Positions 4,148-22,031 are shown, counted from the first letter of the stretch. The stretch is 64,000 nucleotides of DNA from Clostridia bacterium (GCA_045533905.1 JAZSIR010000001.1:1-64000), one strand, 5' to 3'. The notes: a model not told the origin generated them from the sequence alone. Made by a program: numbers and translations.

Positions 4148-4369
4148 ATGCAGGTTAGCTATAAAGGATTATGGGTTAAATGTGCAGAAAATGAAATATC
4201 AAAACATAAGCTGATACAGTTAGCGGAGGTTTCACCTTCTACACTCACAAGACTTAACAAAAATCAAATTGTATCACTTTCAGTTTTGCTTAAATTCTGC
4301 AAAGTGCTTAAATGTGGTATTGGAGATGTAGTAGAAGCTATACCTGCCAGTGATAAACAAAGTAAATGA
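4148..4369 (+). CDS. Cro/C1-type (XRE) HTH regulator
   Basis: VSYKGLW...VSPSTLTRLNKNQIVSLSVLLKFCKVLKCGIGDVVE pattern; GGAGG RBS. Confidence 0.8.
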   Translation: MQVSYKGLWVKCAENEISKHKLIQLAEVSPSTLTRLNKNQIVSLSVLLKFCKVLKCGIGDVVEAIPASDKQSK

Positions 4370-4389
4370 GTTTGAAAGAAGGTGGTATA

Positions 4390-5109: not shown

Positions 5110-5127
5110 TAGGAGGATTAACTGAAT

Positions 5128-6384
5128 ATGACCGGAACAATTATTGAATTTATACTCTTATTGGTAGCCCACGCTGCTGCTGGTATCTTTTCCTCCACTC
5201 TCAAATACAGTAAAAAAACCACATATATCATTTGGGGCACCTGGGTTGTGCTTCAAACAGCACTTCTGTTCTATACGGAATTTGTGCTGACAAATTGGGC
5301 GCTGCAGTTTTTCGTTGGATTTGTACTTTCTCTTGTCGGTCAGTATGTGATATTCTTTGTAACGACAAAAGGAAAGCTTGCACAAAGAATTTTTACCATG
5401 TTGACCTATTCGATCTTCTTCTGTATTGTTATGTCCTTGGTTACGATGGTCAATGGCTCTTTTGGTGAGCTGCACTGGATACTTATCGCACTCATTCAAG
5501 CGGCTTTGCTTTTCGCTATTGTGTTCTATTTTCTTCGCTATGTATGCCCTTTGTGCCGTACTGCTGCAAGGAATATAACAACGGGTTGGGCACCGCTGAT
5601 TTTTGTGAACATCGTCTTTTTGATTACCGTAATTTTGTCCTCGGTATTTCCGGTTAGACTGACAACCTTTAATGATCCTGCGGTTATCACATTTGTTTTT
5701 CTTAGCGTATCTATCTTGTCTGTGTATCCGGTTATTTTTTCAAACATCAACAGCCTGTCCGAAGCGGCAATGAAGAAAGCTGTAGAAACACAAAACAAGC
5801 TGCTTATGACACAGATTGAAGCGGAAAACACACAACTTGCGGCAGACAGCCATGCAAAGCATGACAGACGTCACCACAATCTCATTATGTTGGAATATGC
5901 CAACAACAATGATTTTGAAAGCGTAAAGGATTACTTAAAGACTCTTGTGGAAATTGATGATAAAGCAACAGGTGAAGTGCGGTACTGTGAGAACAGGACG
6001 ATTAACACCATTATAACTGTTTATGAAAGACGTGCGAAAGAAAGCGGAATCTTAGTAAAAGTTGCTGCGGAGAGCAGCCGTGAACTTACCGTTCTTCCGC
6101 AGGACCTTGTGGTTGTCATTGCCAACCTTTTTGAAAATGCAATCAACGCCACTCTGAAGCTAAAGAGCAGAGATAAGTTTATAGATATTCGTATTAAAGA
6201 AAGCTCCAAACGCCTCGTAATAAAGGTTGAAAACCCTTGCAAAGCAAACCTTACCTTTGATGAGTCGTGCTTTGGTGTTGGTATTCGCTCGGTAATTGCC
6301 ACCACAACCAAGTACGAAGGTATGTATGATTTCACCGCCGAGGATGGAATTTTCTCTGCAAAAATCATCTTGAATTTAAAATAA
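5128..6384 (+). CDS. Membrane sensor histidine kinase (GHKL, AgrC/VirS-like)
   Basis: About 7 TM segments, HDRRHH H-box, ANLFENAINA N-box, GVGIRSV G-box. Confidence 0.88.
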   Translation: MTGTIIEFILLLVAHAAAGIFSSTLKYSKKTTYIIWGTWVVLQTALLFYTEFVLTNWALQFFVGFVLSLVGQYVIFFVTTKGKLAQRIFTMLTYSIFFCIVMSLVTMVNGSFGELHWILIALIQAALLFAIVFYFLRYVCPLCRTAARNITTGWAPLIFVNIVFLITVILSSVFPVRLTTFNDPAVITFVFLSVSILSVYPVIFSNINSLSEAAMKKAVETQNKLLMTQIEAENTQLAADSHAKHDRRHHNLIMLEYANNNDFESVKDYLKTLVEIDDKATGEVRYCENRTINTIITVYERRAKESGILVKVAAESSRELTVLPQDLVVVIANLFENAINATLKLKSRDKFIDIRIKESSKRLVIKVENPCKANLTFDESCFGVGIRSVIATTTKYEGMYDFTAEDGIFSAKIILNLK

Positions 6385-6391
6385 AACTGCG

Positions 6392-6424
6392 ATCTACGAC
6401 AAAAAACATACAATCTACGACAAA
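6392..6424 (+). promoter_or_regulatory. LytTR-type direct-repeat binding site
   Basis: ATCTACGACAAA at 6392 and 6413 (21-bp period) upstream of TACAAT -10 at 6451. Confidence 0.7.
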
Positions 6425-6448
6425 CTCCCCATTTCGGGGAGTTTTTTT
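6422..6448 (+). terminator. Intrinsic terminator after kinase
   Basis: AAACTCCCC-ATTTC-GGGGAGTTT followed by T run. Confidence 0.7.
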
Positions 6449-6520
6449 GTTACAATTTATATAAGTATTTTTATTCTGTTAAAAAAACTATGTGAGCATT
6501 TGTGCAAGGGAGGCATAATA

Positions 6521-6781
6521 GTGAACGATAAAAAATATGACGAAAACGGTTATCTTATCATATCCGAAATGGATACTTGTCCTTTATGGGAAAAAGATAC
6601 TGTCCCGAGCATTTACCGTTGTACGCAAGATTGTTTTTATTGCCGTTTTGCAGACTTTCGCACGGAGGAAACTATAACGAGTGCGAAGGAAATACCGCGA
6701 GGCGAAAAACTGTATAGTATCTGCGGCAACGAGAAAAATCGAATAAAGAAATCCGGAAAGGAGCTTAAAAATGAAGATTAA
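6521..6781 (+). CDS. Small Cys-rich hypothetical protein
   Basis: GTG with GGAGG RBS; C-x13-CxxxCxxC...C; overlaps the next gene start. Confidence 0.6.
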   Translation: MNDKKYDENGYLIISEMDTCPLWEKDTVPSIYRCTQDCFYCRFADFRTEETITSAKEIPRGEKLYSICGNEKNRIKKSGKELKNED

Positions 6782-9725
6782 AAAACTTTTATGTTTGCTG
6801 TTTGCACTTCTTATGGTAGTTGGCCTTTTCGCAGGGTGCAGCGGTAAGACAGAACAGAAAAAGGAATTTCAAACATTTGAAGAGTTTAAGGATGCAAAAC
6901 TTGGTGTTCTTACTGGAAGTGAATATGACAGATTAACAAAAGAACTGTTTCCCGACAGTGAGAAATTCCAGTTTGCAGACGTCGCAAATCTTATTTTGAG
7001 TTTAGATGCTGATAAGATAGACGGCTTCCTTCTCGACAGTGCTTACTATTCAGCTGTCGGTTGGGAAAGAGAGGGATACAAGTCTATACAGAGTGACAAC
7101 AACACTACCGTCAGCTATGCTTTTATGTTGTCTGAAAGTGGGATGGCAAAGAAAGTTAAGGGCGAGCTGGACGAATTCATTACAGATATGAAATCCAGCG
7201 GTGGCATAGAGACGCTTGCCGAAAAATGGTTATCCGGAAGAAAACCCACAGAGTTTGAGGATTACAGTACATTAAGCGGAGAAAACGGTATCTTAACGGT
7301 CGCTGTTTCCAATTCCGATATGCCTTTGAGCTTTGTTCCTGAAGATATTGCAATGGGTTTTGATGTGGAGATTATGATTGCTTTTGCTAAAGAGTACGGA
7401 TACAAACTCAACTTTGCTCCTGTTGACTTTGAAGCAAAGCTCGGTGGTATTGCTTCAAACAAATATGACATTGCCATCGGTGGCATTACGGTTACTGACG
7501 AGCGTCGGGAAGAGATGAATTTCACTGTTTCCTATTACGAGAGTCCCGTTGTGATGGTAACAAAAGGACAGGATAATGCAGGGAGTACACTTTCTGACCT
7601 TGCGGGTAAAAAAGTAGGTGTTATGACAGCATCTATTCAGGCAGTTATGATGCCAAAGCTTGTTCCTGACGCAGAATATATGGAATTTAATTCGATATCA
7701 GATTTGATTGCAGCACTTAACAGTAACAAAATAGATGCTTTTGGCTGCGATGAATCCTTATATACATCAATGCTTTGGGAAGGTCAGGCAGTTGACCGCA
7801 TTGATGAGCCTATTGATAAAAGTAATTATGGACTTATATTCCAAAAGGGCAAAAAACTTGAGCTTCAGAACGAGGTTAATGAGTTTATTGCCACGATAAG
7901 TGCAGACGGAACGCTTAAAGCGTTGGAAGAAAAATGGTTTGGTGCGAAAGAACCGACAGAGTTTGCATCATATGAAAACTTAAATGGAACAAAGGGCACA
8001 ATTACAGTTGCCACCAATTCTGCTTCCATGCCGTTTGTATATCGCAAAAATAATAAATTTGTCGGCTTTGATATTGAATTTATTACCGCCTTTGCCAAAG
8101 AATACGGCTATAATATTAAGTTTGAAGATACAGAATTTGCAGCTATTCTCAGCGGTGTTGGGTCAGGAAGATATGACCTTGGTATATCGGGCATTACCAT
8201 AACCGATGAAAGAAAAGAAAGTATGGACTTTTCTGATGTTTACCACGTAGAAGATCTTGCTGTAATTATAAGAAGAGAAGCAGGTGCAGATGAACTTTCG
8301 CAGTTTAACAGCGCAACACTCGGTGTTGTTACAGGCTCACTATACGGTGGATATTCTAAAGAGCAGTTCCCGGGCGCAAGCATCAAAGAGTTTAACAACT
8401 TCTCTGATGTTCTTGTTGCCTTAAAGCAAGGCAAAGTTGACGGGATTATGCTTGATAAACCAAACTTTAACTCCGTTGCACGAACAGACAAGAGCCTTAA
8501 ATGTATCATAGTTCCCGCATATTCTGTGGAAATCGGTTTCGGATTCCAGAAAAATGACGGTGGCGATGCACTTCAGGCACAGATGAACGAGTTTTTGGCA
8601 AAGCTTGATAGCGATGGTACAACAGAGAAGCTCATAGATAAATGGTATGGCGAAACAGAGCCGGAAGAGACTATTGCATTAGAAGAACTTAAGGCAAACG
8701 AAAAGACACTTAATGTATCTATCGACACAACAAGAAAGCCTTTTGTATATATGTATAAAGGAAAACCTGTGGGATTTGAAATTGAAGTCCTTTATATGTT
8801 CTGTAAGGAATATGGCTACAATGTAAATATCTCGGATGTTTCCTTTGCATCAGGACTTGCAGGCTTGGCAAGTGAAAAATATGACCTTGTTTGTGGCGGA
8901 CTTTATATGACGCCTGAAAGAAAAGAAAGTGTAAACTTCTCCAATCCTTATATGAACGCAGAAGTTGTTATGGCAAAATGCGAAAGGTCAGGATTTGATA
9001 ACTTTATGTTATCCATTAAGGAGAGCTTTGAAAAAACCTTTGTAAGAGAGCAAAGATGGAAGCTGATTGTAGAGGGTATTTGCACCACAATGATTATAAG
9101 CTTGTTCTCCGCTTTGGGCGGAACACTACTTGGCTTTGCGCTTTATATGGCGGCACGCAGCAAGAAGAAGTGGCTCTCTAAACTTGCTAAAGGAATAGCA
9201 AAAGTGTATTCCACAATTATTGCAGGCACACCTACGCTCGTTGTACTTATGCTTTTGTTCTATGTGGTATTCACTTCTCCCGATATGAGTGGAATTGTAG
9301 TTGCAATCGTCGGCTTTATACTGACCTTCGGCTCATTTGTTTACGATAATCTTGCATTAACCGTGTCAGGCGTTGACAACGGACAACTTGAAGCTGCATA
9401 TGCTCTCGGCTATTCAAGAAACAGAACATTTTTCAGAATCATTCTGCCGCAGGCAATGAAGATGTTTGTGCCAAGTTATTCGGGCGAAATTGTAAACCTC
9501 ATAAAAGCAACATCCGTTGTTGGTTATATAGCAGTAAACGACTTAACCAAAATGGGAGATATTATCAGAGGTAATACATACGAAGCTTTCTTCCCGCTTA
9601 TTGCAGTTGCAGTAATTTACTTTGCAATCACATGGGTTATAGCAGGACTTCTCGGAATTTTAAGAAAGAAAACCGAACCAAAAAGAAGAAAGAATAAAAA
9701 CATATTAAAGGGGGTTGTAAGATGA
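6771..9725 (+). CDS. Polar amino-acid ABC transporter, multiple substrate-binding domains fused to permease
   Basis: Lipobox LFAGC; repeated GFD/E.E, T.ER...FS..Y and KW motifs of family-3 SBPs; C-terminal HisM-type permease with EAAYALG loop. Confidence 0.9.
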   Translation: MKIKKLLCLLFALLMVVGLFAGCSGKTEQKKEFQTFEEFKDAKLGVLTGSEYDRLTKELFPDSEKFQFADVANLILSLDADKIDGFLLDSAYYSAVGWEREGYKSIQSDNNTTVSYAFMLSESGMAKKVKGELDEFITDMKSSGGIETLAEKWLSGRKPTEFEDYSTLSGENGILTVAVSNSDMPLSFVPEDIAMGFDVEIMIAFAKEYGYKLNFAPVDFEAKLGGIASNKYDIAIGGITVTDERREEMNFTVSYYESPVVMVTKGQDNAGSTLSDLAGKKVGVMTASIQAVMMPKLVPDAEYMEFNSISDLIAALNSNKIDAFGCDESLYTSMLWEGQAVDRIDEPIDKSNYGLIFQKGKKLELQNEVNEFIATISADGTLKALEEKWFGAKEPTEFASYENLNGTKGTITVATNSASMPFVYRKNNKFVGFDIEFITAFAKEYGYNIKFEDTEFAAILSGVGSGRYDLGISGITITDERKESMDFSDVYHVEDLAVIIRREAGADELSQFNSATLGVVTGSLYGGYSKEQFPGASIKEFNNFSDVLVALKQGKVDGIMLDKPNFNSVARTDKSLKCIIVPAYSVEIGFGFQKNDGGDALQAQMNEFLAKLDSDGTTEKLIDKWYGETEPEETIALEELKANEKTLNVSIDTTRKPFVYMYKGKPVGFEIEVLYMFCKEYGYNVNISDVSFASGLAGLASEKYDLVCGGLYMTPERKESVNFSNPYMNAEVVMAKCERSGFDNFMLSIKESFEKTFVREQRWKLIVEGICTTMIISLFSALGGTLLGFALYMAARSKKKWLSKLAKGIAKVYSTIIAGTPTLVVLMLLFYVVFTSPDMSGIVVAIVGFILTFGSFVYDNLALTVSGVDNGQLEAAYALGYSRNRTFFRIILPQAMKMFVPSYSGEIVNLIKATSVVGYIAVNDLTKMGDIIRGNTYEAFFPLIAVAVIYFAITWVIAGLLGILRKKTEPKRRKNKNILKGVVR

Positions 9726-10813
9726 TTAAGATAAATCACTTAAAGAAAGAATATGCAAATGTTACTCCCTTAAAGGATGTAAATGTTCATATTCATAAGG
9801 GCGATGTCATTTCTATTATTGGTCCTTCAGGCACCGGTAAATCAACCCTTATCAGATGTATCAATATGCTTGAAACTCCCACTTCCGGCGATATTTTCGT
9901 TAACGGTGAACGAATTACCGACAAAAAATGTAACATAAACAAAATCCGTCAGAAGATGGGTATGGTGTTCCAATCCTTCAATTTGTTTAACCACATGAAC
10001 ATTATTGAAAACATTATGGCAGCACCTATGGACTTACTTAAAAAATCAAAGCAGGATGCTTATGACGACGGTATGGAGCTTCTTCGCACAGTTGGTCTTG
10101 CAGATAAAGCCTTTAACTATCCCGATGAGCTTTCAGGCGGTCAGAAACAGCGTGTTGCCATAGCAAGAGCACTCGCAATGGAACCCGAAATAATACTCCT
10201 TGATGAGCCGACATCGGCGCTCGATCCCACAATGGTCGGTGAAGTTCAGGCGGTAATTAAAGACCTTGCAAAAAAAGGCTTAACTTTAATGATAGTAACT
10301 CACGAAATGCGATTTGCAAGAGAAATTGCAAACAGAGTTTTCTATATGGATGAAGGCGGTGTTTATGAAGACGGAACACCTGAAGAAATCTTCGATAATC
10401 CAAAGCGAGAAAAGACAATCAGATTTATTAAGCACCTTAAAGTATTTGAAAATCTTATCACCTCAAAGGATTTCGACTTTATAGGCTTTAATACATCTTT
10501 AGAAGAATTCGGCAGACGAAATCAGGTTCCGCAGGAAACCATTTACCGCGCACAGTCGGTATTTGAAGAACTTGTTGTGCAATGTCTTCTTCCAAAGCTT
10601 GAGGAAGAGTTTACTCTAAGTATTGCCTTTGAATATTCTCAAGATGAAGAAACACTTTCGATGATTATGAAATATGACGGAGAACATTTCGATGTACGAA
10701 ATACACCTAATGTTATTTCGTTTGCTATTGCTGAAAATGCATCAGAAAGCATTGATTATACTGAGTGTAACGACGGTAATTTTACAAACCTCGTGACGGT
10801 GAAAATCAAATAA
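9722..10813 (+). CDS. GlnQ-type ABC ATPase with C-terminal RsbW-like (HATPase-fold) extension
   Basis: GPSGTGKS, LSGGQKQR, ILLDEPTSALDP, VTHEM; ~120-aa extra tail VFEELVVQ...YDGEHFD...TNLVTVKIK. Confidence 0.88.
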   Translation: MIKINHLKKEYANVTPLKDVNVHIHKGDVISIIGPSGTGKSTLIRCINMLETPTSGDIFVNGERITDKKCNINKIRQKMGMVFQSFNLFNHMNIIENIMAAPMDLLKKSKQDAYDDGMELLRTVGLADKAFNYPDELSGGQKQRVAIARALAMEPEIILLDEPTSALDPTMVGEVQAVIKDLAKKGLTLMIVTHEMRFAREIANRVFYMDEGGVYEDGTPEEIFDNPKREKTIRFIKHLKVFENLITSKDFDFIGFNTSLEEFGRRNQVPQETIYRAQSVFEELVVQCLLPKLEEEFTLSIAFEYSQDEETLSMIMKYDGEHFDVRNTPNVISFAIAENASESIDYTECNDGNFTNLVTVKIK

Positions 10814-10825
10814 CGAGGTGATAAA

Positions 10826-12397
10826 TTGGAACAGTATAATTTTTCAAACAGCAATATTGACCTTGCCTGTGAGGATGTTGGCGTTTTTCTGACATCGGTC
10901 GGAGTGGAAAAACGCGAAGTTTTGCGAAACAAACTCACCCTTGAGGAAATACTCCTTGAATACCAAGCAAAGTTTGGTGAAGAAGCGAACTTTAAGGTAA
11001 GATGCGTAAACCGCTTTATGACCATCAAGGTTGAGTTAATTGTTTCGGGACGGGTTTACAATCCGCTTGAAAAGAACGAGGAAGAAAACATCATACATGG
11101 AATTTTGGCAGGTATCGGTCTTGCCCCCTCATACGGATACAGAAACGGAAAGAATTATATCATTTTCACTCCCAAGAAAAAACCGTTGTCAAGCACGGTT
11201 AAAATGGGTGTGGCGATTGGACTTTCGCTCATTTGCGGTTTTTTCCTTAATCTTCTGCCCGATTCAGTTAGAGCAGGTGCAAGCAAATATGTACTTTCGC
11301 CTGTGACCGATGCGTTTATGGGATTGATTTCGGCTGTATCGATTCCGCTGATTTTCTTGTCTGTCCTTGGTAGCATCTGCTCTATGGGCAACATGGAAAC
11401 TCTCGGCAAAATTGGAAAAAAGACCATTAAAACTATTCTCCTGTATTTGACGGCGTTCAGTATACTTATGACAGCACTTGGAAGCTTGTTCTTTCACGTA
11501 CAGTGGGGTGGCGGAGGAGCATCAGGTTTCTCACAGGTTTTCGATTTGATTTATAACATCATTCCATCGAATATGTTTGAACCTTTTATAACGGGAAATA
11601 CTCTGCAGCTTATCTTCATTTCCATTATAGTTGGACTTGCAATGCTTGTCCTTTCGACAAGAGTGAACGGTGTTTTCAAACTTGTCGAACAGTTGGGCGC
11701 GATTGTGCAAACAATTATGTCAGGACTTTCATCTATGCTGCCGATTTTGATTTTTGTACTCTTTACGGGAATGATATCCGGCGGAGAGTTCGGAACTCTG
11801 CTTGATTCTTGGAAGATTATTGCAGTTTTCCTGTTGCTCGTTATGGTTTACTATGCAACAACTGTTTTGTACATTGCATTTAATAAAAAAATTTCGCCGG
11901 CTTTGCTATTAAAAAAGACATGGAAGACGCTTATTATTGCTCTTACAACTGCATCTTCTGCTGCGGCATTCCAAAAAAATATTCGCGATTCAAACAAAAA
12001 GTTTGGTATTGACAAACGTCTCGCGGAATTTGGGGCATCCTTGGGACAAGTGTTGTTCAGCCCTGCTGATGTTGCTATTCTCATTGCAATGGAGGTTGGG
12101 TTTGCGGAAATGTATGGCATTGCGATCACTCCGCAGTTTTTAATCATTGCGTTGATCACGAACCTACTTTTGTCATTTTCCATTCCTCCCGTACCCGGAG
12201 GCTCTGTGATGGGATACACTATTGCATTCACACAGCTTGGTATTCCTTTGGAGGTTATGGGTGTTGTTCTTGCCTTGGATGCGATCATTGATTTTCCGGC
12301 AACAGCGTGCAACATTTCGGGATGGCAGCTTACAATGATTGAGGTTGCTGACTCGCTCGATATGCTCGATAAAGAAACACTTTGCAAAAAGAGATGA
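10826..12397 (+). CDS. DAACS (dicarboxylate/amino acid:cation symporter)-family protein with N-terminal RsbW-like domain, copy 1
   Basis: PLIF.S, IIPSN.F, TASSAAA, PPVPGG, D.P.TACN.SG motifs; TTG start with GAGGTG RBS. Confidence 0.85.
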   Translation: MEQYNFSNSNIDLACEDVGVFLTSVGVEKREVLRNKLTLEEILLEYQAKFGEEANFKVRCVNRFMTIKVELIVSGRVYNPLEKNEEENIIHGILAGIGLAPSYGYRNGKNYIIFTPKKKPLSSTVKMGVAIGLSLICGFFLNLLPDSVRAGASKYVLSPVTDAFMGLISAVSIPLIFLSVLGSICSMGNMETLGKIGKKTIKTILLYLTAFSILMTALGSLFFHVQWGGGGASGFSQVFDLIYNIIPSNMFEPFITGNTLQLIFISIIVGLAMLVLSTRVNGVFKLVEQLGAIVQTIMSGLSSMLPILIFVLFTGMISGGEFGTLLDSWKIIAVFLLLVMVYYATTVLYIAFNKKISPALLLKKTWKTLIIALTTASSAAAFQKNIRDSNKKFGIDKRLAEFGASLGQVLFSPADVAILIAMEVGFAEMYGIAITPQFLIIALITNLLLSFSIPPVPGGSVMGYTIAFTQLGIPLEVMGVVLALDAIIDFPATACNISGWQLTMIEVADSLDMLDKETLCKKR

Positions 12398-12406
12398 GGT
12401 GGTTAA

Positions 12407-13981
12407 TTGGAACAGTATAATTTTTCAAACAGCAATATTGACCTTGCCTGTGAAGAAGTCGGTGAGTTTCTTTCCAAAGTCGGTGTAGAACGACGCGAGG
12501 CTCTCCGAACAAAGCTCACATTTGAGGAAGTATTGCTTGAATACCAATCCAAGTTCGGAGAGGAAGCCACCTTCAAGGTGAGACTTCTGAAACGCTTGTC
12601 CTCTATAAAGGTCGAGATCATCGTAGAAGGAGAATCCTACAACGCTCTTGTCAAAAACAGCGACGAGGGTGACGTGATACAAGGTCTGCTTGCAGGTATC
12701 GGTCTTGCTCCTACTTGGAATTACAAGAACGGTAAAAATTACATCGTATTTATACCAAAGAAAAAACCGCTGTCCGGCACGGCCAAAATGGTCGGTGCAA
12801 TCGGACTTGCGGTGATTTGCGGAATTATCTTAAATCTCTTGCCAGACGGAATCAGAGCAGGCGCAAACGATTATGTGCTAACACCCGTAACGAATGCGTT
12901 TGTGGGACTTATCTCAGCAGTATCAGGGCCGCTGATCTTCCTATCGGTTCTCGGCAGTATCTGCTCCATGGGCAATATGGAAACCCTCGGCAAGATCGGA
13001 AGTAAGACGATTAAGGTTATCCTTCTTTATATGACGGTAATCGCAGTATTGATGACCGCATTCGGCTGCCTGTTTTATCACATTGAAATGGGTGGCGGAG
13101 GGACATCGAGCTTCTCGCAGATTCTCGATTTGATCTATGACATCATTCCGTCAAATCTGTTTGAACCCTTTGTAACCGGAAATGCTTTGCAGCTGATCTT
13201 CATTTCCATCATGGTCGGACTTGCAATGCTTGTCCTATCGTCGAGAGTCAGTGGCGTGTTCAAGCTCGTGGAACAGCTCAGCTCCATCGTGCAAACGATT
13301 ATGTCGGGGCTGTCCTCAATGCTTCCGATTCTGATATTTGTTCTCTTTACGGGAATGATTTCAAGCGGTAACCTTGGTGCAATTCTCGATTCTTGGAAGA
13401 TGATATTAGTCATCGTGCTAATGATTGTAGTTTACTACGTACTGAATCTTCTGCGAATCTCCCTTATGAAAAAGATACCGCCGGCTTTGCTGATGAAGAA
13501 AGCGTGGCAGACACTTCTCATTGCACTTACCACCGCATCCTCGGCTGCCGCGTTCGGTACGAACACCCGTGATGCAAACAAAAAGCTTGGTATTGACAAA
13601 AAGCTTGTTGAGTTCGCAACTCCCATCGGTCAGGTATTGTTTATGCCCGGATATGTCGCCATGCTTTTTTGTATGGAAATGGGCTTTGCGGAATCCTACG
13701 GTCTTCCGATTACTCTACCGTGGATATTTATCGCTCTTATCACAAATCTTTTGTTATCATTTGCAGTCCCGCCCGTGCCCGGTGGTGCAATGATGGGATT
13801 TACGATTGCTTTTACACAACTCGGCATTCCTATGGAGGTTATGGGTATTGCGTTGGCGGTGAACGCTATCATTGATTTCCCCTGTACAGCCTGCAATGTT
13901 TCAGGATGGCAGCTTACTCTTATTGATGTTGCTGACTCACTTAATATGTTGGATAAAGAATCATTACATAAAAATAATTAA
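12407..13981 (+). CDS. DAACS-family protein with N-terminal RsbW-like domain, copy 2
   Basis: Tandem paralogue of 10826-12397 with identical first ~47 nt. Confidence 0.85.
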   Translation: MEQYNFSNSNIDLACEEVGEFLSKVGVERREALRTKLTFEEVLLEYQSKFGEEATFKVRLLKRLSSIKVEIIVEGESYNALVKNSDEGDVIQGLLAGIGLAPTWNYKNGKNYIVFIPKKKPLSGTAKMVGAIGLAVICGIILNLLPDGIRAGANDYVLTPVTNAFVGLISAVSGPLIFLSVLGSICSMGNMETLGKIGSKTIKVILLYMTVIAVLMTAFGCLFYHIEMGGGGTSSFSQILDLIYDIIPSNLFEPFVTGNALQLIFISIMVGLAMLVLSSRVSGVFKLVEQLSSIVQTIMSGLSSMLPILIFVLFTGMISSGNLGAILDSWKMILVIVLMIVVYYVLNLLRISLMKKIPPALLMKKAWQTLLIALTTASSAAAFGTNTRDANKKLGIDKKLVEFATPIGQVLFMPGYVAMLFCMEMGFAESYGLPITLPWIFIALITNLLLSFAVPPVPGGAMMGFTIAFTQLGIPMEVMGIALAVNAIIDFPCTACNVSGWQLTLIDVADSLNMLDKESLHKNN

Positions 13982-14000
13982 AAGAAAGAGGTAGATTACT

Positions 14001-14297
14001 ATGACTATCGAAAAAAACTTAAACGGAACCGAACTGACAGTTGCCATTGTTGGCAGACTTGACACAACAACCGCACCTGAACTTGAAGCATCTTTAAAAG
14101 AAAGCTTTACTGGTGTAGAAAAACTTGTGCTTGATTTTGCTTCACTTGAGTATCTTTCTTCTGCAGGACTTCGTGTTCTTCTGGCGGCTCAGAAGGCAAT
14201 GAACAAGCAGGGCGAAATGATTATTAAGAATGTAAACGAAACCATCAATGAAATCTTTGAAGTAACGGGATTTATTGATATTTTGACAATCGAATAA
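14001..14297 (+). CDS. STAS anti-anti-sigma-type protein, copy 1
   Basis: GRLDTTTAPEL, LVLDF..LEYLSSAGLR phosphoacceptor motif, EIFEVTGF. Confidence 0.92.
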   Translation: MTIEKNLNGTELTVAIVGRLDTTTAPELEASLKESFTGVEKLVLDFASLEYLSSAGLRVLLAAQKAMNKQGEMIIKNVNETINEIFEVTGFIDILTIE

Positions 14298-14317
14298 TTG
14301 CTTAGGGAGGGCTTTGT

Positions 14318-15211
14318 ATGCCGAATTACGATTTTTTGCTTGAGCATAAGCTGAAGGAACTGAATAGTGAGTTTGCATATCGGCATACCTGCTGTATGTC
14401 ACTTTTTGAGCAAATGCTGAAAAGGTTTCTCGCCGTATTCCCAACATTTACCGATCATACACTCCTACATACTTTGAGTGTGACAAACATATCAAACCAA
14501 CTGCTTCGTGAAAATGTTATGAAATTAAATGCAAGCGAGATATACATATATCTTATGGCGTGTGCTTTGCATGATATTGGAATGGGTGTTTCGGACAAGG
14601 ACATTGGCTCATTTATTGATGCATCCGGTCTCAGAGGATATGTAAACGAACATCCTGAAATATCTAAGCCTAATTTGATACGCAAATTTCACAACGATTT
14701 TTCAGCACAGTTTGTAAAAAAGTATTGGGAGATACTTGAGATACCAAATAAGCGGTATGCTGATGCGATTGCTGAGGTCGGACGAGGGCACAGAAAGACG
14801 GATTTGATGGATGAAGCACTTTATCCTACAGATTACGAACTTGGTGACGGAAGCAAAGCGAATCTTGCCTTGCTTGCGGCACTTATACGACTTTGCGATG
14901 AGCTTGATATAGCATCGGACAGAAACCCTGATTTGCTGTATGATACCGAAACTATGGAGGGTATGAGCGAGAAGGATGTATTTGAGTTTTCCAAGCACGA
15001 GGCTATCCATACGCTAAAGTTTAGTGAGGATAATATTGTGGTTATTGCTGACACAGATAAACCGGATATTGCCGATGGAGTTATAGAGGCGATCCGTACT
15101 GTTAAAGAAACTCTTGAATATTGTCTTTCTGTAATCAGCAAACGTAGTGATTTTCAAATTGATTGCGAAACAATAAAACTGATATTAAATGATAAAGAAG
15201 TAGAGGTGTAA
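14318..15211 (+). CDS. HD-domain phosphohydrolase (HD-CE-like)
   Basis: FTDHTLLH, LHDIGMG, RKFH...S, GH, IRLCDELD motifs. Confidence 0.7.
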   Translation: MPNYDFLLEHKLKELNSEFAYRHTCCMSLFEQMLKRFLAVFPTFTDHTLLHTLSVTNISNQLLRENVMKLNASEIYIYLMACALHDIGMGVSDKDIGSFIDASGLRGYVNEHPEISKPNLIRKFHNDFSAQFVKKYWEILEIPNKRYADAIAEVGRGHRKTDLMDEALYPTDYELGDGSKANLALLAALIRLCDELDIASDRNPDLLYDTETMEGMSEKDVFEFSKHEAIHTLKFSEDNIVVIADTDKPDIADGVIEAIRTVKETLEYCLSVISKRSDFQIDCETIKLILNDKEVEV

Positions 15212-15215
15212 AAAT

Positions 15216-15929
15216 ATGGCAACTGCACATATAAATGCAAAACCGGAGGATTTCGCAAAAACGGTGCTTATGCCCGGCGATCCTCTCCGCGCAAAGCTGA
15301 TCGCGGAAAAATATCTTGAAAACGCTGTACTTGTAAATAATGTCAGAGGCGTTCAGGGCTATACGGGTACATATAAGGGCAAACGAGTGTCCGTTATGGC
15401 GAGTGGTATGGGAATGCCGTCAATGGGTATTTATTCTTATGAGCTTTACAAGTTTTTCGGAGTAGAAAACATTATTCGTATTGGTTCAGCAGGTGCTCTT
15501 AATACCGATATTTATGTTCGTGATGTTGTAATCGGTATGGGTTGTTCTACTGATTCCAATTTTGCGGCAAATTACAAGCTTCCCGGAACTTTTGCTCCAC
15601 TTTGCAGCTACAAACTGATGGACGCTTGTGTTGAAAGTGCAAAAGAAATGGGTGTAACATATCACGTGGGCAACCTTCTTTCGTCAGATATTTTCTATGG
15701 TGATGACGAAACGGCAAACGACGCCTGGGCAAAGATGGGTGTTATGGCAATAGAGATGGAGGGTGCGGCACTTTATATGAATGCTGCGCGTCTTGGCAAA
15801 AACGCCCTTGTTATTTGTACCGTATCCAATCACATAATCACGGGCGAGGAAACTACTGCTGAGGAAAGACAGAATTCCTTTGGTGAAATGATTACATTGG
15901 CACTTGAAACCGCCTTGAAGTTAGACTGA
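15216..15929 (+). CDS. deoD: Purine-nucleoside phosphorylase
   Basis: ATAHINAK, VLMPGDPLRAK, GMGMPSMGIYSYEL, IRIGSAG, EMEGAALY. Confidence 0.95.
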   Translation: MATAHINAKPEDFAKTVLMPGDPLRAKLIAEKYLENAVLVNNVRGVQGYTGTYKGKRVSVMASGMGMPSMGIYSYELYKFFGVENIIRIGSAGALNTDIYVRDVVIGMGCSTDSNFAANYKLPGTFAPLCSYKLMDACVESAKEMGVTYHVGNLLSSDIFYGDDETANDAWAKMGVMAIEMEGAALYMNAARLGKNALVICTVSNHIITGEETTAEERQNSFGEMITLALETALKLD

Positions 15930-15943
15930 CGGAGGGGGTACTG

Positions 15944-16582
15944 ATGGTAGAAATATTGAAGGGACTTGGCATCACCGTTTTTCTGACTGTTGCATGCTTT
16001 ATAACAGCATCCTTGATTGGAGCATTAACTTGTGCCGGCTTTTGCTCTAAAAACAAAATAGTCAGAACGGTATGCAAGATTTATAATGGCTTGGTGATTA
16101 AGATTCCTCCGCTCGTTATGTTAATGCTTTTCGCATTAGTCGTTATGGGCGACCGTAATAAAGGAACTATATTTATTGCTTTTGTAGGACTGTCTCTTTT
16201 TGTTGCAGCAAATCTTACCGGTGTTTTCTGTGGCGGTGTTTTTTCCGTTGCAAATGGAGAAATTGAAGCGGCTCGCACGTTGGGAATGAACAAGATTCAA
16301 ACATTTTTTCATGTTATGTTACCTCAGATAATTGAAAACATTGTTCCGGTATATATGTCAATGTTTGTGATGTGTATGCAGATTACAAGTGTGGCATCCG
16401 TTATTGGAGTAGGTGAATTTCTTAGCGTAACCGATGGTATTTCCGATGCTGTAATTGGAATTGTGATTTCGATTTCAGGTTATTTTGTTATTGGAACACT
16501 CGGTGATTTCGTTATCACCCGTATAGGAAAGATAAAACATATTAAAGCAAAGGATTATCCTGGAAAGGCGGAGGTGAGATAA
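15944..16582 (+). CDS. Amino-acid ABC permease (HisM-like, divergent)
   Basis: GEIEAARTLGM EAA loop, hydrophobic segments. Confidence 0.8.
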   Translation: MVEILKGLGITVFLTVACFITASLIGALTCAGFCSKNKIVRTVCKIYNGLVIKIPPLVMLMLFALVVMGDRNKGTIFIAFVGLSLFVAANLTGVFCGGVFSVANGEIEAARTLGMNKIQTFFHVMLPQIIENIVPVYMSMFVMCMQITSVASVIGVGEFLSVTDGISDAVIGIVISISGYFVIGTLGDFVITRIGKIKHIKAKDYPGKAEVR

Positions 16583-16583
16583 G

Positions 16584-17675
16584 ATGAGTCTTGTAGAAAT
16601 AAAAAATCTTACCAAGCGTTTCGGAGATAATCTTATTTGGGAGAATGTCAACGAATCTATCGAAAAAGGCGATGTGATAGTTATTGTCGGTAACTCGGGT
16701 TGCGGAAAGACAACTTTCCTTCGGTGTATCAATATGCTTGAAACACCTTCATCCGGTCAGATTTTCATTGATGGTGATGAAATAACTGCAGTCGGTGCTG
16801 ATATTGATAAAATTCGCAGTAAAATGGGTATGGTGTATCAGAATTTCAATTTGTTCTCACATCTTACTGTACTTGAAAACATTATTAAGGCACCAATGGT
16901 GGTTAATAAGATTCCCAAGGAGCAGGCAATCAAGGAAGGTATGGAATATCTTCGTATGGTAGGTATGCAAGAGAAAGCAGATTTTATGCCCGATCAGCTT
17001 TCGGGCGGACAGAAACAGCGTGTGGCAATTGCCCGTTGTCTTGCTATGAAGCCTGAAATCATTCTGTTTGACGAACCGACAAGCGCACTTGATCCTACAA
17101 TGGTGGATGAGGTTCTTGCGGTTATTAGAAATCTTGCTAAGAGTGGGTTCACTTGTGTAATTGTAACCCACGAAATGGCATTTGCTAAAAGTGTGGCAAG
17201 TAAAATCATCTTCTTTGCTGACAGAGGAATTTATGAGGAGGCACCGCCTGTTGAGTTTTTTGAGCATCCCAAAAGAGAAAAAACAGTTGCCTTTGTTCGC
17301 AAACTCAAGACCTATACCTACGAGTCTGAGGTTTGCAATATCGATCTTTATACACTTTTAGTTCAGGTCAACAATTATTGTAGTAAATATGCATTTCCGC
17401 TTAAATCTGCAAACCGTTTTCAATTAGTAGTGGAAGAACTTTTAACCTGTTTGCAAAGTATTGGCGGAGATGGCGAGATGAACTTGACTGTGGCGTATGA
17501 AGATACCACAGGCAAAAAAGAAATTATTTTGCGCGAAAAAGTGTGTAAGGGAAATATACTTGATGCGGAGCAGATGGACGAACTGAGTCTGATGCTTATT
17601 AAGAACTGTGCATCCGATATTAAGCACTGCGTTGAAAACGGATATAATGTATTAACAATTGAAATAAAAGAATAG
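16584..17675 (+). CDS. GlnQ-type ABC ATPase with C-terminal RsbW-like extension, copy 2
   Basis: GNSGCGKT, LSGGQKQR, LFDEPTSALDP; tail FQLVVEELLT...ENGYNVLTIEIK. Confidence 0.88.
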   Translation: MSLVEIKNLTKRFGDNLIWENVNESIEKGDVIVIVGNSGCGKTTFLRCINMLETPSSGQIFIDGDEITAVGADIDKIRSKMGMVYQNFNLFSHLTVLENIIKAPMVVNKIPKEQAIKEGMEYLRMVGMQEKADFMPDQLSGGQKQRVAIARCLAMKPEIILFDEPTSALDPTMVDEVLAVIRNLAKSGFTCVIVTHEMAFAKSVASKIIFFADRGIYEEAPPVEFFEHPKREKTVAFVRKLKTYTYESEVCNIDLYTLLVQVNNYCSKYAFPLKSANRFQLVVEELLTCLQSIGGDGEMNLTVAYEDTTGKKEIILREKVCKGNILDAEQMDELSLMLIKNCASDIKHCVENGYNVLTIEIKE

Positions 17676-17698
17676 AATTTTCGGCAAGTGAGGTTTTT

Positions 17699-19387
17699 AT
17701 GAAACGATTGTTGTATGGCGGTACGGTTGTTAATGTGTTCACAGGCGAGCTTGAGCAAACGAACGTGCTGATAGAAAAAGATAAAATTGTAGGTGTTGGT
17801 GCATATTCTCCCGATGATGCGGATATGACCGAGGATATTACAGGAAAGTACATATGCCCCGGATTTATTGACGGTCATATTCACATTGAAAGCACGATGT
17901 TGACACCCTCAGAGCTTGCAAGACTGTGTATGCCTCACGGAACTACCGCAATCGTTGCCGATCCTCACGAGATTGCCAATGTATGCGGTATGGATGGCAT
18001 CAAATATATGATGGAAGCAAGTAGCGGTATCCCTCTCTCGGTTTATTTTACATTGCCTTCCTGCGTTCCCGCAACACCGTTTGATGAATCGGGTGCGGTG
18101 CTTGAGGCGGACGATATCAGACCACTGTACGAAAACAAGCGAGTTGTAGGACTTGCCGAAATGATGAACTATCCCGGAGTTCTCCTTGGAACGAGCGATG
18201 TGTATAACAAAATCGGTGATGCAATAGAACACGGAAAAGTCATTGATGGCCACGCCCCCTTCTTGTCAGGAAAAGAACTTGATAAATACATTTGTGCAGG
18301 TATTACGAGTGACCACGAGTGCTCGGATGTGGGTGAAGCGATAGAAAAAATCAGAAAAGGTCAATGGGTGATGATTCGCCAAGGAACGGCTGCTCGTAAC
18401 CTTGCAGAGCTATTGCCATTGTTTGATGATGCTTATAGCCATAGATGCGTTCTTGTCACCGATGACCGTCATCCCGCAGACCTTATAAGAGACGGACATA
18501 TTGATAATATCATCCGTCTTGCCGCCCGAGGCGGGAAATCAGTTATTACGGCAATTAAAATGGCTACGATACAGGCAGCTCAGTGCTTCGGTTTGCGATT
18601 CGTTGGGGCTGTTGCTCCCGGTTACCGTGCAGATCTTCTTGTACTAAACGACCTTAATGCAGTTGATATTGAAGACGTTTATTCAAAGGGAGAAAAGGTT
18701 GTAGAGCGAGGGCAAATGAAAGCGTTTGACCGTCCCAAAATTGACGGGGGGTTGTGCGAAACAGTACATAACTCGTTCCATACAAAAGAATTGACGATTG
18801 CTGATTTTCACATTGAAGAAAATAGCAACAAATGTCGAGTGATAGAGATTATTCCCGGTCAGCTTCTCACGGGGGAACAAGTGTGTGAGATTGATTGGAG
18901 CAAGAGGAACGGCATTGACACCACGAGAGACATTCTTAAACTCGCGGTTATTGAAAGACACAAAAACACAGGTCATATTGGACTTGGCTTTATTAAGGGT
19001 ATTGGAATAAAAAATGGTGCTATTGCATCCTCCGTATCTCACGATTCACACAATATTATTGTGATTGGCTCAAATGACGAGAATATGGTGATTGCCGCAA
19101 ATAACATCCGTAAGAATGGTGGTAATGTAGTTGTTTCTGCCGGAAAGATTATTGCCGACATGGCATTGCCGATAGCAGGTCTTATGACCAATCTTTCAGG
19201 CGAGGAAATTGCCCTTGCCAATGAAAATGTACGCAAAGCCGTGTATGAGCTTGGCGTGTCGAGGAATATCGAACCTTTTATGAATATGGCGTTTGTGAGT
19301 CTGCCTGTAATTCCGTCACTCAAAATGACGACGCAGGGGCTTGTGAACGTAGATAAACAAGAAAGAATATCGCTTTACTGCGATTAA
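17699..19387 (+). CDS. ade: Adenine deaminase
   Basis: PGFIDGHIHIES, DPHEIANV, LAEMMN, DGHAP, SDHEC, TDDRH, HDSHN. Confidence 0.95.
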   Translation: MKRLLYGGTVVNVFTGELEQTNVLIEKDKIVGVGAYSPDDADMTEDITGKYICPGFIDGHIHIESTMLTPSELARLCMPHGTTAIVADPHEIANVCGMDGIKYMMEASSGIPLSVYFTLPSCVPATPFDESGAVLEADDIRPLYENKRVVGLAEMMNYPGVLLGTSDVYNKIGDAIEHGKVIDGHAPFLSGKELDKYICAGITSDHECSDVGEAIEKIRKGQWVMIRQGTAARNLAELLPLFDDAYSHRCVLVTDDRHPADLIRDGHIDNIIRLAARGGKSVITAIKMATIQAAQCFGLRFVGAVAPGYRADLLVLNDLNAVDIEDVYSKGEKVVERGQMKAFDRPKIDGGLCETVHNSFHTKELTIADFHIEENSNKCRVIEIIPGQLLTGEQVCEIDWSKRNGIDTTRDILKLAVIERHKNTGHIGLGFIKGIGIKNGAIASSVSHDSHNIIVIGSNDENMVIAANNIRKNGGNVVVSAGKIIADMALPIAGLMTNLSGEEIALANENVRKAVYELGVSRNIEPFMNMAFVSLPVIPSLKMTTQGLVNVDKQERISLYCD

Positions 19388-19420
19388 AAATAATAATAAT
19401 TTAGAAAGAGGTAATTTATA

Positions 19421-19717
19421 ATGACTATCGAAAAGAACTTAAGCGGTACAGAACTTAATGTAAAGGTGTCAGGCAGACTTGACACAACAACCGCACCGGA
19501 ACTTGAAGCAGAAGTTATGGGCGCAATCTCAGGTGTAACAAAACTTGTACTTAACTTTGAAGCACTTGAGTACCTTTCATCTGCAGGACTCAGAGTACTG
19601 CTTCAGGTACAAAAGATAATGAACAAGCAGGGTGAGATGATTATTAAGAACGTAAACGAAACAATCAATGAGATTTTTGAAGTAACAGGATTCATTGATA
19701 TTCTGACGATTGAATAA
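19421..19717 (+). CDS. STAS anti-anti-sigma-type protein, copy 2
   Basis: Close paralogue of 14001-14297; YLSSAGLR. Confidence 0.92.
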   Translation: MTIEKNLSGTELNVKVSGRLDTTTAPELEAEVMGAISGVTKLVLNFEALEYLSSAGLRVLLQVQKIMNKQGEMIIKNVNETINEIFEVTGFIDILTIE

Positions 19718-19760
19718 GGTGAACTCCAATGAACCAAACAAGTATTGGAGGGATATACCT

Positions 19761-21611
19761 ATGAAACCAAAAAAGCAAACAAGCATTTCCTACAACTTCC
19801 TAAAATGGCTCTTATTCTTGATGCTCGTCGCCTTTATTGCCACAACCGTGTTCCTGTGGGTATTCCAAACACGACTCGCAAACAACAATGCCGACAATCT
19901 CTTGCGGTTGAACATCACTGATGTCAAGGCAGACATAAAAGACGCCACCAACGACCATATGCTTGAGATCGTTCGCAACATATCGGCAGAGCTTGACGAT
20001 ATAGATGCAGATACCGCATCAGAAGAAGAAATGAGTGCACGAATTGCGGAAATGCTCACACGGTACGATGTAACGGAGATTGATATTATCAACAGTAAAG
20101 GTATCATCGTGGCGTGTAATATCGAATCTTTCGTCGGCTTCGATATGGCATCGGGCGAGCAATCCAAAGAGTTCTTGGTGTTGCTCGAAGGCGAAAAGGA
20201 AATGGTGCAGGAATTTCAAGCTCAGTCCTATGACAGCTCCATTGAGCGTAAGTATGCAGGCGCATCGCTTACAAACGGCGGTCTTGTGCAGATTGGTTAT
20301 GACTACGCGCATTTGCAGGCGAGCGTTGACCACGAGGTTGTTTCGCTCACCCGTAACCGTCACGTGGGCAACAACGGACGAGTTCTGATTGTTGACCAAG
20401 ATAAAAACATTGTCAGCAATGTCAAAGGAATTGACCGTAAAAAACTTGATTTAGAAGCGTTCGGAATAAAACCCGGCTCTGTTCAATCAGGACAACGTGT
20501 TACCGCAAACGTAGAGGGTGTTGATTTCTACTGTATGGCAGAAATGGCCGAAGGCTACTACATTATATCCGCAATACCGGTTAAAGAAGTAACCATCACA
20601 CGAAATATGGTTGTCATTATGGCAGTTGCGGTTGAAATGCTGATATTTATTGCCCTGACGCTTCTTGTCTATCTTTTGATAAAGAAACAGATCGTCGTCA
20701 GCGTGAACCGTATCAACCATTCGCTATCGGAGATCACAAACGGAAACCTTGATGTTACGATGGACGTGCGTAACAATTTGGAATTTGACTCACTTTCCAA
20801 CGACATCAACGCAACGGTAGATACTTTGAAGCGGTACATCAAGGATGCAGAAGAACGCATCGACGCAGAGCTTGCCTTTGCAAAAGCCATTCAGCACTCG
20901 GCGTTGCCGTCTGTATTCCCGCCTTATCCGAATAGAAAAGAGTTCGAGATCTTCGCCACGATGCACACGGCAAAAGAGGTTGGCGGTGATTTCTACGATT
21001 TCTATTTTGTAGACGAAGATAACCTTGCGTTCTTGATAGCAGACGTATCCGGCAAGGGTGTCCCTGCGGCAATGTTTATGATGCAATCCAAGACCATCAT
21101 CAAGAGCTGTGCCGAGTCGGGCATGAGCGTTGAGCAGGTATTCACCGTTGCCAACGAAAAGCTCTGCGAGGGCAATGATGCAGGTATGTTCGTTACCGCC
21201 TGGATGGGTATTCTGAATACCAAAACCGGCAAGGTACTCTTTGCCAATGCCGGACATAACCCGCCTCTTGTCAAACACGCAGACGGTACATACGAATATC
21301 TCAAATCCCGTGCAGGTTTTGTGCTTGCAGGTATGGAGGGTGTTCGCTACCGCAAGAATGAAGTTGAGCTTGCACCCGGTGATGCGATTTATCTCTACAC
21401 CGACGGTGTTACCGAAGCAACCGATCTGAACACCGAGCTTTACGGAGAAGATCGTCTGCATATCGTTCTTGAAAAATACAAAGATGCAGCACCGCAAGTG
21501 ATCTGTGATGAAGTCAAAAAGGATGTAGACGCCTTCGTCGGGGAAGCTCCGCAGTTTGATGACATTACAATGCTTGCGCTGAAATACTACGGGAAGGAGG
21601 ATGCACAATGA
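19761..21611 (+). CDS. Membrane sensor PP2C (SpoIIE/RsbU-type) phosphatase with HAMP domain
   Basis: Two TM segments flanking an extracellular domain, HAMP, VGGDFYD, ADVSGKG, NAGHNPP, YTDGVTEA, DDIT; GGAGG RBS before ATG 19761. Confidence 0.92.
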   Translation: MKPKKQTSISYNFLKWLLFLMLVAFIATTVFLWVFQTRLANNNADNLLRLNITDVKADIKDATNDHMLEIVRNISAELDDIDADTASEEEMSARIAEMLTRYDVTEIDIINSKGIIVACNIESFVGFDMASGEQSKEFLVLLEGEKEMVQEFQAQSYDSSIERKYAGASLTNGGLVQIGYDYAHLQASVDHEVVSLTRNRHVGNNGRVLIVDQDKNIVSNVKGIDRKKLDLEAFGIKPGSVQSGQRVTANVEGVDFYCMAEMAEGYYIISAIPVKEVTITRNMVVIMAVAVEMLIFIALTLLVYLLIKKQIVVSVNRINHSLSEITNGNLDVTMDVRNNLEFDSLSNDINATVDTLKRYIKDAEERIDAELAFAKAIQHSALPSVFPPYPNRKEFEIFATMHTAKEVGGDFYDFYFVDEDNLAFLIADVSGKGVPAAMFMMQSKTIIKSCAESGMSVEQVFTVANEKLCEGNDAGMFVTAWMGILNTKTGKVLFANAGHNPPLVKHADGTYEYLKSRAGFVLAGMEGVRYRKNEVELAPGDAIYLYTDGVTEATDLNTELYGEDRLHIVLEKYKDAAPQVICDEVKKDVDAFVGEAPQFDDITMLALKYYGKEDAQ

Positions 21612-22018
21612 AAGAACTAACCATTGCCGCAACAGTAGAAAACATTGAAACTGTAACGGACTTCGTAAACGAACAGCTTGAAGCGTTTGATTGCCCTATG
21701 AAAGCACAGATGCAGATCGACATTGCCATCGACGAGCTTTTCGGCAACATTGCGCACTATGCGTACAATCCCGATGTAGGAGAAGCGACCGTTCGCGTGG
21801 AGGTTACCGAAGATCCTCTTGCCGTGGTAATCACCTTTATTGATAACGGCGTACCTTACGATCCTCTTGCAAAAGCCGAGCCCGACACAACGCTTTCCGC
21901 AGAGGAAAGAGACATCGGTGGTCTTGGCATCTATATGGTGAAGAAGTCTATGGACGACATTGCCTATGAATACAAAGACGGACACAACATTTTGAAAATC
22001 AAGAAGAATTTGAATTAA
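21608..22018 (+). CDS. RsbW/SpoIIAB-type serine kinase (anti-sigma-factor family)
   Basis: AIDELFGNIAHYAY N-box, DNGVPYDP, GGLGIYMV. Confidence 0.92.
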   Translation: MKELTIAATVENIETVTDFVNEQLEAFDCPMKAQMQIDIAIDELFGNIAHYAYNPDVGEATVRVEVTEDPLAVVITFIDNGVPYDPLAKAEPDTTLSAEERDIGGLGIYMVKKSMDDIAYEYKDGHNILKIKKNLN

Positions 22019-22031
22019 AGGATTATTGCAA

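Follow-up and report, generated by a model that had tools for sequence, protein, structure and literature searches.

RsbW-type domains without ATP motifs on ABC and DAACS transport proteins: candidate docking sites for STAS proteins in a sigma-free operon of a Clostridia bacterium

Why do four transport proteins each carry a domain related to the RsbW serine kinase, from which the ATP-binding motifs have been lost, and why are their genes co-transcribed, by their spacing, with a partner-switching module in which a sigma factor is missing? This question is raised by an operon on a 64,000-nucleotide stretch of the genome of a Clostridia bacterium from the gut (GCA_045533905.1, JAZSIR010000001.1:1-64000; the whole of this stretch is termed the window), which encodes two ATP-binding cassette (ABC) ATPases with an extra C-terminal domain, two DAACS proteins with an extra N-terminal domain, two STAS proteins, a membrane PP2C phosphatase and an RsbW-type kinase (Table 1). 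Comparison of sequences and predicted folds suggests, at a probability that we place near 0.55, that the dead RsbW-type domains are docking sites at which unphosphorylated STAS protein gates amino-acid transport.

The extra domains comprise approximately 123 amino acids beyond the GlnQ-like core of the ABC ATPases and approximately 121 amino acids ahead of the SDF domain of the DAACS proteins, and none of the four was matched by Pfam. Among their homologues HATPase_c_2 was reached by 5 of 11 ABC tails (best E 7e-4) and by a distant DAACS N-terminus (E 8e-5), and just 1 of 12 close DAACS domains gave a Pfam match, at E 0.07. Profile sets were assembled from loci of other genomes (21 ABC tails, 24 DAACS N-termini, 7 MATE tails and 31 RsbW-subfamily kinase domains), and HHalign comparison with the kinase set gave 96.7 for the ABC tails (E 4e-10), 97.6 for the DAACS N-termini (E 3e-12) and 98.8 for the MATE tails, the ABC tails and DAACS N-termini matching one another at a probability of 97.4. 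The scores for the ABC and DAACS sets were 60 and 73 as compared to maxima of 13 and 18 in 15 column-shuffled controls each; over all comparisons real scores lay at 60-99, and those of shuffled and reversed controls at 29 or below. The diverse set was needed, as the ABC tail versus kinase comparison was not significant with close relatives alone; the tails of the two ATPases share approximately 17% identity. AlphaFold models covering one ABC tail (pLDDT 95) and one DAACS domain (pLDDT 89) of the four predict a strand-helix-helix-strand-strand-helix-strand-strand succession, which is the RsbW order with a shortened lid, and the top ten Foldseek rows for each model were UsfX, RsbW and SpoIIAB, all anti-sigma factors, with UsfX as best match of the ABC tail (TM 0.78). 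In VIA the ABC model aligned with the anti-sigma/RsbW-type group at Z 10.5-13.8 (best Z 13.8, rmsd 3.0, 118 aligned) and with histidine kinases at Z of no more than 7.7. By homology, the four extra domains are shown to be RsbW/SpoIIAB derivatives, with a predicted GHKL two-layer fold that includes the N-terminal strand and helix of the anti-sigma factors; the profile and Foldseek comparisons which the earlier note on this locus had proposed agree in this assignment. In the ESM Atlas some clusters among the neighbours (0.96-0.97) carry HATPase_c_2 in 12-16% of their members, which served as a lead only. A PDB sequence search with the domain profiles returned no RsbW, and its weak OspA and HPr matches were dismissed as chance. 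The ratio dN/dS of the extra domains was 0.05-0.2 in pairs with unsaturated dS, as low in the DAACS domain as in the membrane core, and the domains are under purifying selection. The DAACS form matched 903 clusters at 50% identity, 366 of these at E 1e-10; the domain escapes Pfam in most cases, despite this wide occurrence.

By their catalytic motifs the extra domains are derivatives and not members of the kinase family. The N-box Asn, the G1 Asp and the GGLG box are invariant in 31 of 31 kinases, and the N-box Asn is found in 1 of 21 ABC tails, 0 of 17 close DAACS domains and 8 of 76 diverse DAACS domains (76 full-length fusions among 150 listed representatives, median identity 32%). The lid is shortened, GGLG is absent and the G1/DxG Asp is not conserved, the G1 Gly being mostly kept; DAACS domains have a short GxG-like stretch past the third helix (Gly in 54/76) but no GGLG. 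What has been retained is an acidic pair at the positions of RsbW Ser48/Glu49, which is invariant in 21/21 ABC tails, where it is the sole invariant pair, and in 17/17 DAACS domains; the 76 diverse DAACS fusions have Glu in 75 and Glu/Asp in 74. In the RsbV-RsbW crystal, which is nucleotide-free and has a disordered lid, RsbW Ser48 and Glu49 touch RsbV Tyr53/Ser56 (PMC7340262; this and the other articles given by PMC number are drawn upon in excerpt), and the equivalent STAS Tyr51 and Ser54 are invariant in 25/25 STAS proteins. In addition, an acidic residue stands in place of RsbV Arg87 in 24 of 25 STAS proteins, and Arg/Lys in place of RsbW Asp42 in 13/21 ABC tails and in 16/17 close and 59/76 diverse DAACS domains, a possible charge swap between STAS proteins and extra domains that is read from alignments.

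Candidate partners for this surface are encoded in the same operon. Both STAS proteins carry the motif YLSSAGLR with the phospho-serine position, the phosphatase has the metal-binding Asp motifs of PP2C, and the kinase has the N, G1 (DxG) and G2 (GGLG) boxes and matches B. subtilis RsbW in the PDB, all of this being read from sequence; the dCache_1 match of the phosphatase is weak (E 1e-3, below cut-off), and no informative PDB relative was found for the ligand of this sensor domain. A scan of 22 open reading frames in and around the operon identified no sigma factor. The earlier note had described this set (two STAS proteins, a membrane PP2C and one intact kinase, with no sigma factor) together with four RsbW-like domains on transporter subunits that lack the N-box Asn and GGLG, and these observations were borne out, the peptides which it quoted being found at the positions given.

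The module resembles the RsbU-RsbV-RsbW/SigB and SpoIIE-SpoIIAA-SpoIIAB/SigF switches of Bacillus in its sensor PP2C, phospho-serine STAS and GHKL serine kinase, and the extra domains retain the fold and STAS-contact positions of the RsbV-RsbW pair (PMC7340262). Unlike these switches, the operon is without a sigma factor, its kinase falls below the RsbW and SpoIIAB equivalog cut-offs, and the further copies of its kinase fold have no ATP motifs and are joined to transporters. A non-kinase RsbW fold is known from Mycobacterium smegmatis, where RsbW1 has no kinase activity on RsfB and binds unphosphorylated but not S63E RsfB, RsbW2 being the kinase (PMC7693655); the mycobacterial SigF switch (RsbW1/UsfX, RsfB, RsbW2 and the PP2C RsfR) likewise separates this fold from kinase and phosphatase (PMC7693655, PMC10950880). 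UsfX, the RsbW1 ortholog and best structural match to the extra domains, is a free anti-sigma factor, whereas the operon's fold is fused to membrane transport proteins and present in four copies. Outputs other than a known sigma factor are also controlled by Vibrio SypA/SypE, Bordetella BtrUVW, Nostoc HmpUVW and Pseudomonas SiaABC (PMC8256260), and SiaB-SiaC is a fold match to the ABC tail model; the targets of the switches described in that excerpt are either unknown or no transporters and, unlike the operon's proteins, none of these switches has a dead kinase fold fused to its target. A literature search, which included few subscription papers and no supplements, found no description of a transporter-fused RsbW domain.

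From what is known of these families, the kinase would phosphorylate both STAS proteins at Ser54, and this phosphate would be removed by the dCache-PP2C in response to an outside ligand. Because the acidic pair is retained and the kinase-negative RsbW1-RsfB pair provides a precedent, we propose that unphosphorylated STAS would dock on the dead domains at their helical face, from which phospho-STAS would be released, the dead domain acting as a portable STAS receptor that would take the place of the sigma factor as output. Docking would alter transport, and the most likely way is a restraint on the ATPase dimer in the manner of EIIA-Glc, which only when unphosphorylated binds MalK and its C-terminal regulatory domain and blocks uptake (PMC6906923). 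By analogy, STAS gating is likely to work like this inducer exclusion, even though the phosphotransferase-system phosphocarrier and the MalK regulatory domain are unrelated to STAS and the RsbW fold and, unlike EIIA-Glc/MalK, the operon has its own kinase and sensor phosphatase. The gating of transport by STAS is the weakest step of this scheme, and its sign is a guess.

The two classes of transport core differ in their state of preservation. The ABC ATPases have Walker A and B, signature and H-loop, each retained by 104 or more of 106 homologs, and Q-loop and D-loop as well; they score below the GlnQ equivalog cut-off, hence no substrate was assigned, and the nearest solved relatives of the operon's substrate-binding domains are glutamine/arginine-type binding proteins. 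The DAACS proteins share with DAACS/SLC1 carriers (GltPh, GltTk, GltP, DctA, SstT) the SDF domain, hairpins HP1 and HP2, and D394, T398 and N401, but differ from them by the N-terminal RsbW-like domain and by replacement of the NMD motif, of R397 and of the Asp of transmembrane helix 8 (TM8; GltPh D405), which presumably also serves cation coupling. Of the fused DAACS, none of the 120 close sequences and 1 of the 76 diverse ones has the NMD motif, a loss that the earlier note had not mentioned; the TM8 Asp is Trp in 115 of 120 close sequences, the R397 position is variable, and N401 is less well kept in distant fusions (37/76). Three fused DAACS of another subgroup retain NMDG. Unfused controls have NxDG in 25/34, and NxDG or the TM8 Asp in 31/34, these 34 being the best-scoring family matches, which lean canonical. 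The NMD motif coordinates Na+, selectivity for acidic substrates lies with R397, and D394 is the residue that binds the amino group (PMC5110648, PMC12668577); the fused proteins are therefore expected to show neither acidic-substrate selectivity nor Na+ coupling. Since ion-uncoupled DAACS carriers have been described (PMC12668577), loss of the motif does not imply loss of transport, and the fused DAACS would, judging by these residues, be neutral-amino-acid binders that are uncoupled, differently coupled or non-transporting.

Co-occurrence of the fusions and the module was evaluated in two samples. Approximately 400 genomes of the class yielded 12 with a genuine fusion (ABC tails in 10, DAACS fusions in 6), and the kinase subfamily (E of 1e-25 or lower) was found in 11/12 of these as compared to 33/386 others; by genus the figures were 8/9 with a fusion and approximately 21/208 without. 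The second sample covered 250 genomes from the phylum as a whole; six of them had strong tail matches and the kinase was present in 6/6 versus 4/244 at E of 1e-20 or lower, a threshold chosen after the results were seen; STAS was found in all five searched of the six fusion genomes. In some genomes the fusions are on other contigs than the kinase or 60-300 kb away from it. Five candidates were dropped: the match in G101 contains stops, that in G157 is ClpC, that in G501 is weak and is no ABC ATPase, that in G574 is the kinase itself, and the gene of L021 is broken. G153 and G385 were left without a score, and G607 was counted as a tail genome though its tail is a separate frame behind a 235-amino-acid ATPase. 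Among 25 close loci STAS lies directly 3' of the DAACS gene in 12 of the 15 that reach far enough, and within the class the module adjoins ABC fusions at 8 of 12 assessable loci. The association of fusions with a STAS/PP2C/RsbW module, as the earlier note had anticipated, is thus supported at genome level in both samples; it does not extend to gene neighbourhoods in general.

Several findings weigh against STAS docking as the common function of the domains. DAACS fusions adjoin the module at 0 of 9 distant loci, and outside the class 1 of 9 ABC loci is linked, to a partial STAS, four loci being cut by contig ends. A predominance of fusions without STAS/PP2C neighbours, which the earlier note had named as contrary to its proposal, is in part what is seen for distant fusions, the module usually lying elsewhere in the genome. 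Related genomes are not independent in the counts above, and at 1e-25 the phylum sample gives 3/6 versus 3/244. G236, a genome of 99% completeness, has a DAACS fusion with no match to the kinase subfamily or STAS; these profiles detected an ABC or DAACS fusion in only 11 of the 44 genomes of the class that have the kinase subfamily, and other outputs (STAS-APH, RelA/SpoT, kinase-acyltransferase) are encoded beside the kinase. The acidic pair, together with a conserved C-terminal Asn, could be structural instead, and the loss of cation sites from the DAACS cores is as compatible with a sensor as it is with a gated carrier.

It is this loss which lends weight to an alternative that we consider possible but unlikely, whereby the transporters, and above all the DAACS proteins, are sensors in which substrate shifts the hold of the dead domain on STAS, and STAS, once released, acts on the kinase or on other targets. 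The motif that coordinates Na+ is missing from all 120 close and 75 of the 76 diverse fused DAACS while HP1, HP2, D394 and T398 are kept, unfused controls mostly retain the coupling residues, and candidate outputs other than transporters are encoded near related modules; the absence of cation-coupling residues therefore raises the possibility, mentioned in the earlier note, that the fusions relay substrate status. The sensor role is harder to reconcile with ABC ATPases that have all catalytic motifs and three binding domains, and with an operon that already has a sensor phosphatase, and the DAACS argument itself is tempered by the subgroup with NMDG, by the description of uncoupled carriers (PMC12668577) and by the canonical leaning of the 34 controls. 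Somewhat more doubtful is the notion that the domains were kept merely for dimerisation, folding or trafficking after STAS binding had been lost: RsbW dimerises via beta1 and alpha1 (PMC7340262), which would suit an ABC ATPase dimer, and many distant fusions are unlinked, with G236 lacking the module altogether. Such a role leaves unexplained the strong co-occurrence in genomes, including those with fusions on other contigs or 60-300 kb away, the invariant acidic pair, and fusion to opposite ends of unrelated carriers. Moreover, DAACS proteins are trimers, which a two-fold dimer module would suit poorly.

Given that UsfX, the top fold match, also binds SigF, and that the host has SigF/G-like genes, the domains might be membrane-tethered anti-sigma factors of the kinase-negative UsfX/RsbW1 kind, which retain a sigma factor from another locus in the way that MalK retains MalT. 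We regard this as improbable, as there is no sigma gene within the operon, the host sigF sits with its own spoIIAA-spoIIAB on another contig, and three of nine non-self fusion genomes tested (G220, G461, G500) have fusions and kinase with no SigB/F/G above cut-off. ABC importers often have C-terminal ligand-binding regulatory domains, such as those of MetN and ModC, and the emptied nucleotide pocket might similarly bind a small metabolite for direct, STAS-independent trans-inhibition, and the operon does contain purine-salvage genes; the lid and DxG Asp are, however, unconserved with no conserved replacement, the purine genes are accessory among the cassettes of relatives, and of all the alternatives this one strikes us as the most remote. 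Docking of STAS on the dead domains accordingly remains the reading that we favour for this operon. A wider claim is put forward tentatively and at well below even odds: anaerobic Bacillota would have joined the lid-less RsbW fold, as a portable receptor for STAS, to several unrelated transporter classes, a phospho-switch without a sigma factor would thereby control a whole set of carriers after translation, and the DAACS proteins would now be amino-acid receptors or uncoupled carriers connected to this switch.

The operon is a co-oriented run of genes at 6500-24218 with gaps of no more than 33 bp, preceded immediately by a terminator-like hairpin. The feature described in the earlier note spans 9722..22018; the operon itself is longer, adding the permease with its binding domains and the 5'-nucleotidase and including purine-salvage genes. 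A promoter scan of the operon was at chance level (52 vs 47). Contigs in three RNA runs from two studies span pieces of the operon, including a DAACS N-terminal domain, and in the absence of a silent control do not indicate transcription.

Table 1. Genes and domains of the operon in gene order, followed by features of related loci.
Feature	Position	Strand	Basis
Polar amino-acid ABC importer, three SBP_bac_3 fused to permease (BPD_transp_1)	6771..9725	+	Pfam
ABC ATPase 1, GlnQ-like, catalytic motifs intact, C-terminal RsbW-like domain	9722..10813	+	Profiles
Lid-less RsbW-like domain of ATPase 1	10442..10810	+	HHalign, model, Foldseek, VIA
DAACS protein 1, N-terminal RsbW-like domain 10826-11188, NMD motif and TM8 Asp replaced	10826..12397	+	
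DAACS protein 2, N-terminal RsbW-like domain 12407-12769, NMD motif and TM8 Asp replaced	12407..13981	+	
STAS protein 1, Ser54 at RsbV Ser56 position	14001..14297	+	Pfam STAS; TIGR00377 above cut-off; RsbV alignment
HD-CE domain protein (accessory)	14318..15211	+	PF24391, E 1e-34
Purine nucleoside phosphorylase DeoD (accessory)	15216..15929	+	NCBIfam above cut-off
Second ABC permease, without own binding protein	15944..16582	+	BPD_transp_1
ABC ATPase 2, C-terminal RsbW-like domain 17301-17672	16584..17675	+	Pfam, alignment
Adenine deaminase (accessory)	17699..19387	+	TIGR01178 above cut-off
STAS protein 2, 81% identical to STAS 1	19421..19717	+	Pfam, alignment
Membrane sensor phosphatase dCache-HAMP-PP2C (SpoIIE)	19710..21611	+	SpoIIE, E 2e-51
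RsbW-type Ser kinase, N, G1 and G2 boxes intact	21608..22018	+	HATPase_c_2, E 4e-22
SLH-anchored 5'-nucleotidase, final operon gene, 7-bp gap (accessory)	22026..24218	+	Pfam
Stand-alone protein of ~200 amino acids	L076:7305-7931, L077:8392-9018, L078:4159-4731, L089:9340-9939, L094:18677-19300		
RelA/SpoT and HD_4 sites	L014:5746-7328, L076:2266-4130, L077:12253-13835, L090:8612-9694, L044:16497-17063		

The operon region has a GC content of 38-41% as compared to 49% in the rest of the window, it is flanked by a MobP3 relaxase, a tyrosine recombinase and serine recombinases, and near-identical cassettes occur in metagenome-assembled genomes titled Clostridia, Eubacteriales, Faecousia and Acutalibacteraceae; we infer that it is a mobile island. 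A single-sequence query with the DAACS domain gave no match in 60 related genomes, and 72,556 plasmid records gave no match to one ABC tail or one DAACS domain. Upstream of the operon, at 4366-6781 of the window, a LytTR regulator and GHKL sensor are followed by a Cys-rich open reading frame of 93 amino acids, and these recur in several relatives. A purine-salvage set (5'-nucleotidase, DeoD and adenine deaminase) and an HD-CE protein are encoded within the operon, for which tblastn of the host gave no further copy; an HD-CE gene is also close to a distant DAACS fusion (L178).

Related modules extend the range of fusions. MATE proteins whose C-terminal domain is above the HATPase_c_2 cut-off adjoin PP2C and constitute a third carrier class, their loci having been fetched via kinase or tail matches, which biases this linkage; by their motifs (N-box Asn in 4/7, GGLG in 0/7) the MATE tails are an intermediate state of motif loss. 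Single-chain importers that combine binding domains, permease, ATPase and dead RsbW tail were observed at L046:9709-12459 and L054:6683-10093 (916 and 1136 amino acids), and in P0391 and P0369 the DAACS fusion has an extra N-terminal region of approximately 230 amino acids, with no Pfam match, ahead of the RsbW-like domain. In or near five related PP2C-RsbW-STAS clusters there is a stand-alone protein of approximately 200 amino acids, likewise without a Pfam match, which has the acidic pair in 4/5 and aligns weakly with the ABC tails (HHalign 74), and which may be a dead RsbW in free form that contains an insertion. Small RelA/SpoT-domain proteins and HD_4 hydrolases adjoin STAS genes in related modules, and an alarmone output of these modules is possible. 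Further parts of the kit are combined as STAS-APH kinase, STAS-APH-RsbW and RsbW-acyltransferase fusions (L044:15320-16543, L078:5343-6914, L079:6467-7960). A single-module nonribosomal peptide synthetase (condensation, adenylation, carrier, reductase) is inserted in the cassette 3' of STAS at L014:9575-13765 and L018:15673-19857, and ABC genes of approximately 720 amino acids, resembling peptide exporters, lie 3' of the kinase in several modules (L011:15086-18566, L082:4930-9753, L083:10324-15146).

The DAACS subfamily that has lost the NMD motif may, by its residues, be an uncoupled carrier or a sensor, and would be useful for studies of ion coupling. Several STAS switches have non-sigma targets that are unknown (PMC8256260), and the operon presents a concrete candidate target class together with a putative docking surface. 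If the proposed docking is correct, it would represent a second and unrelated form of inducer-exclusion-like control, which has its own outside sensor and is reused on ABC, DAACS and MATE carriers.

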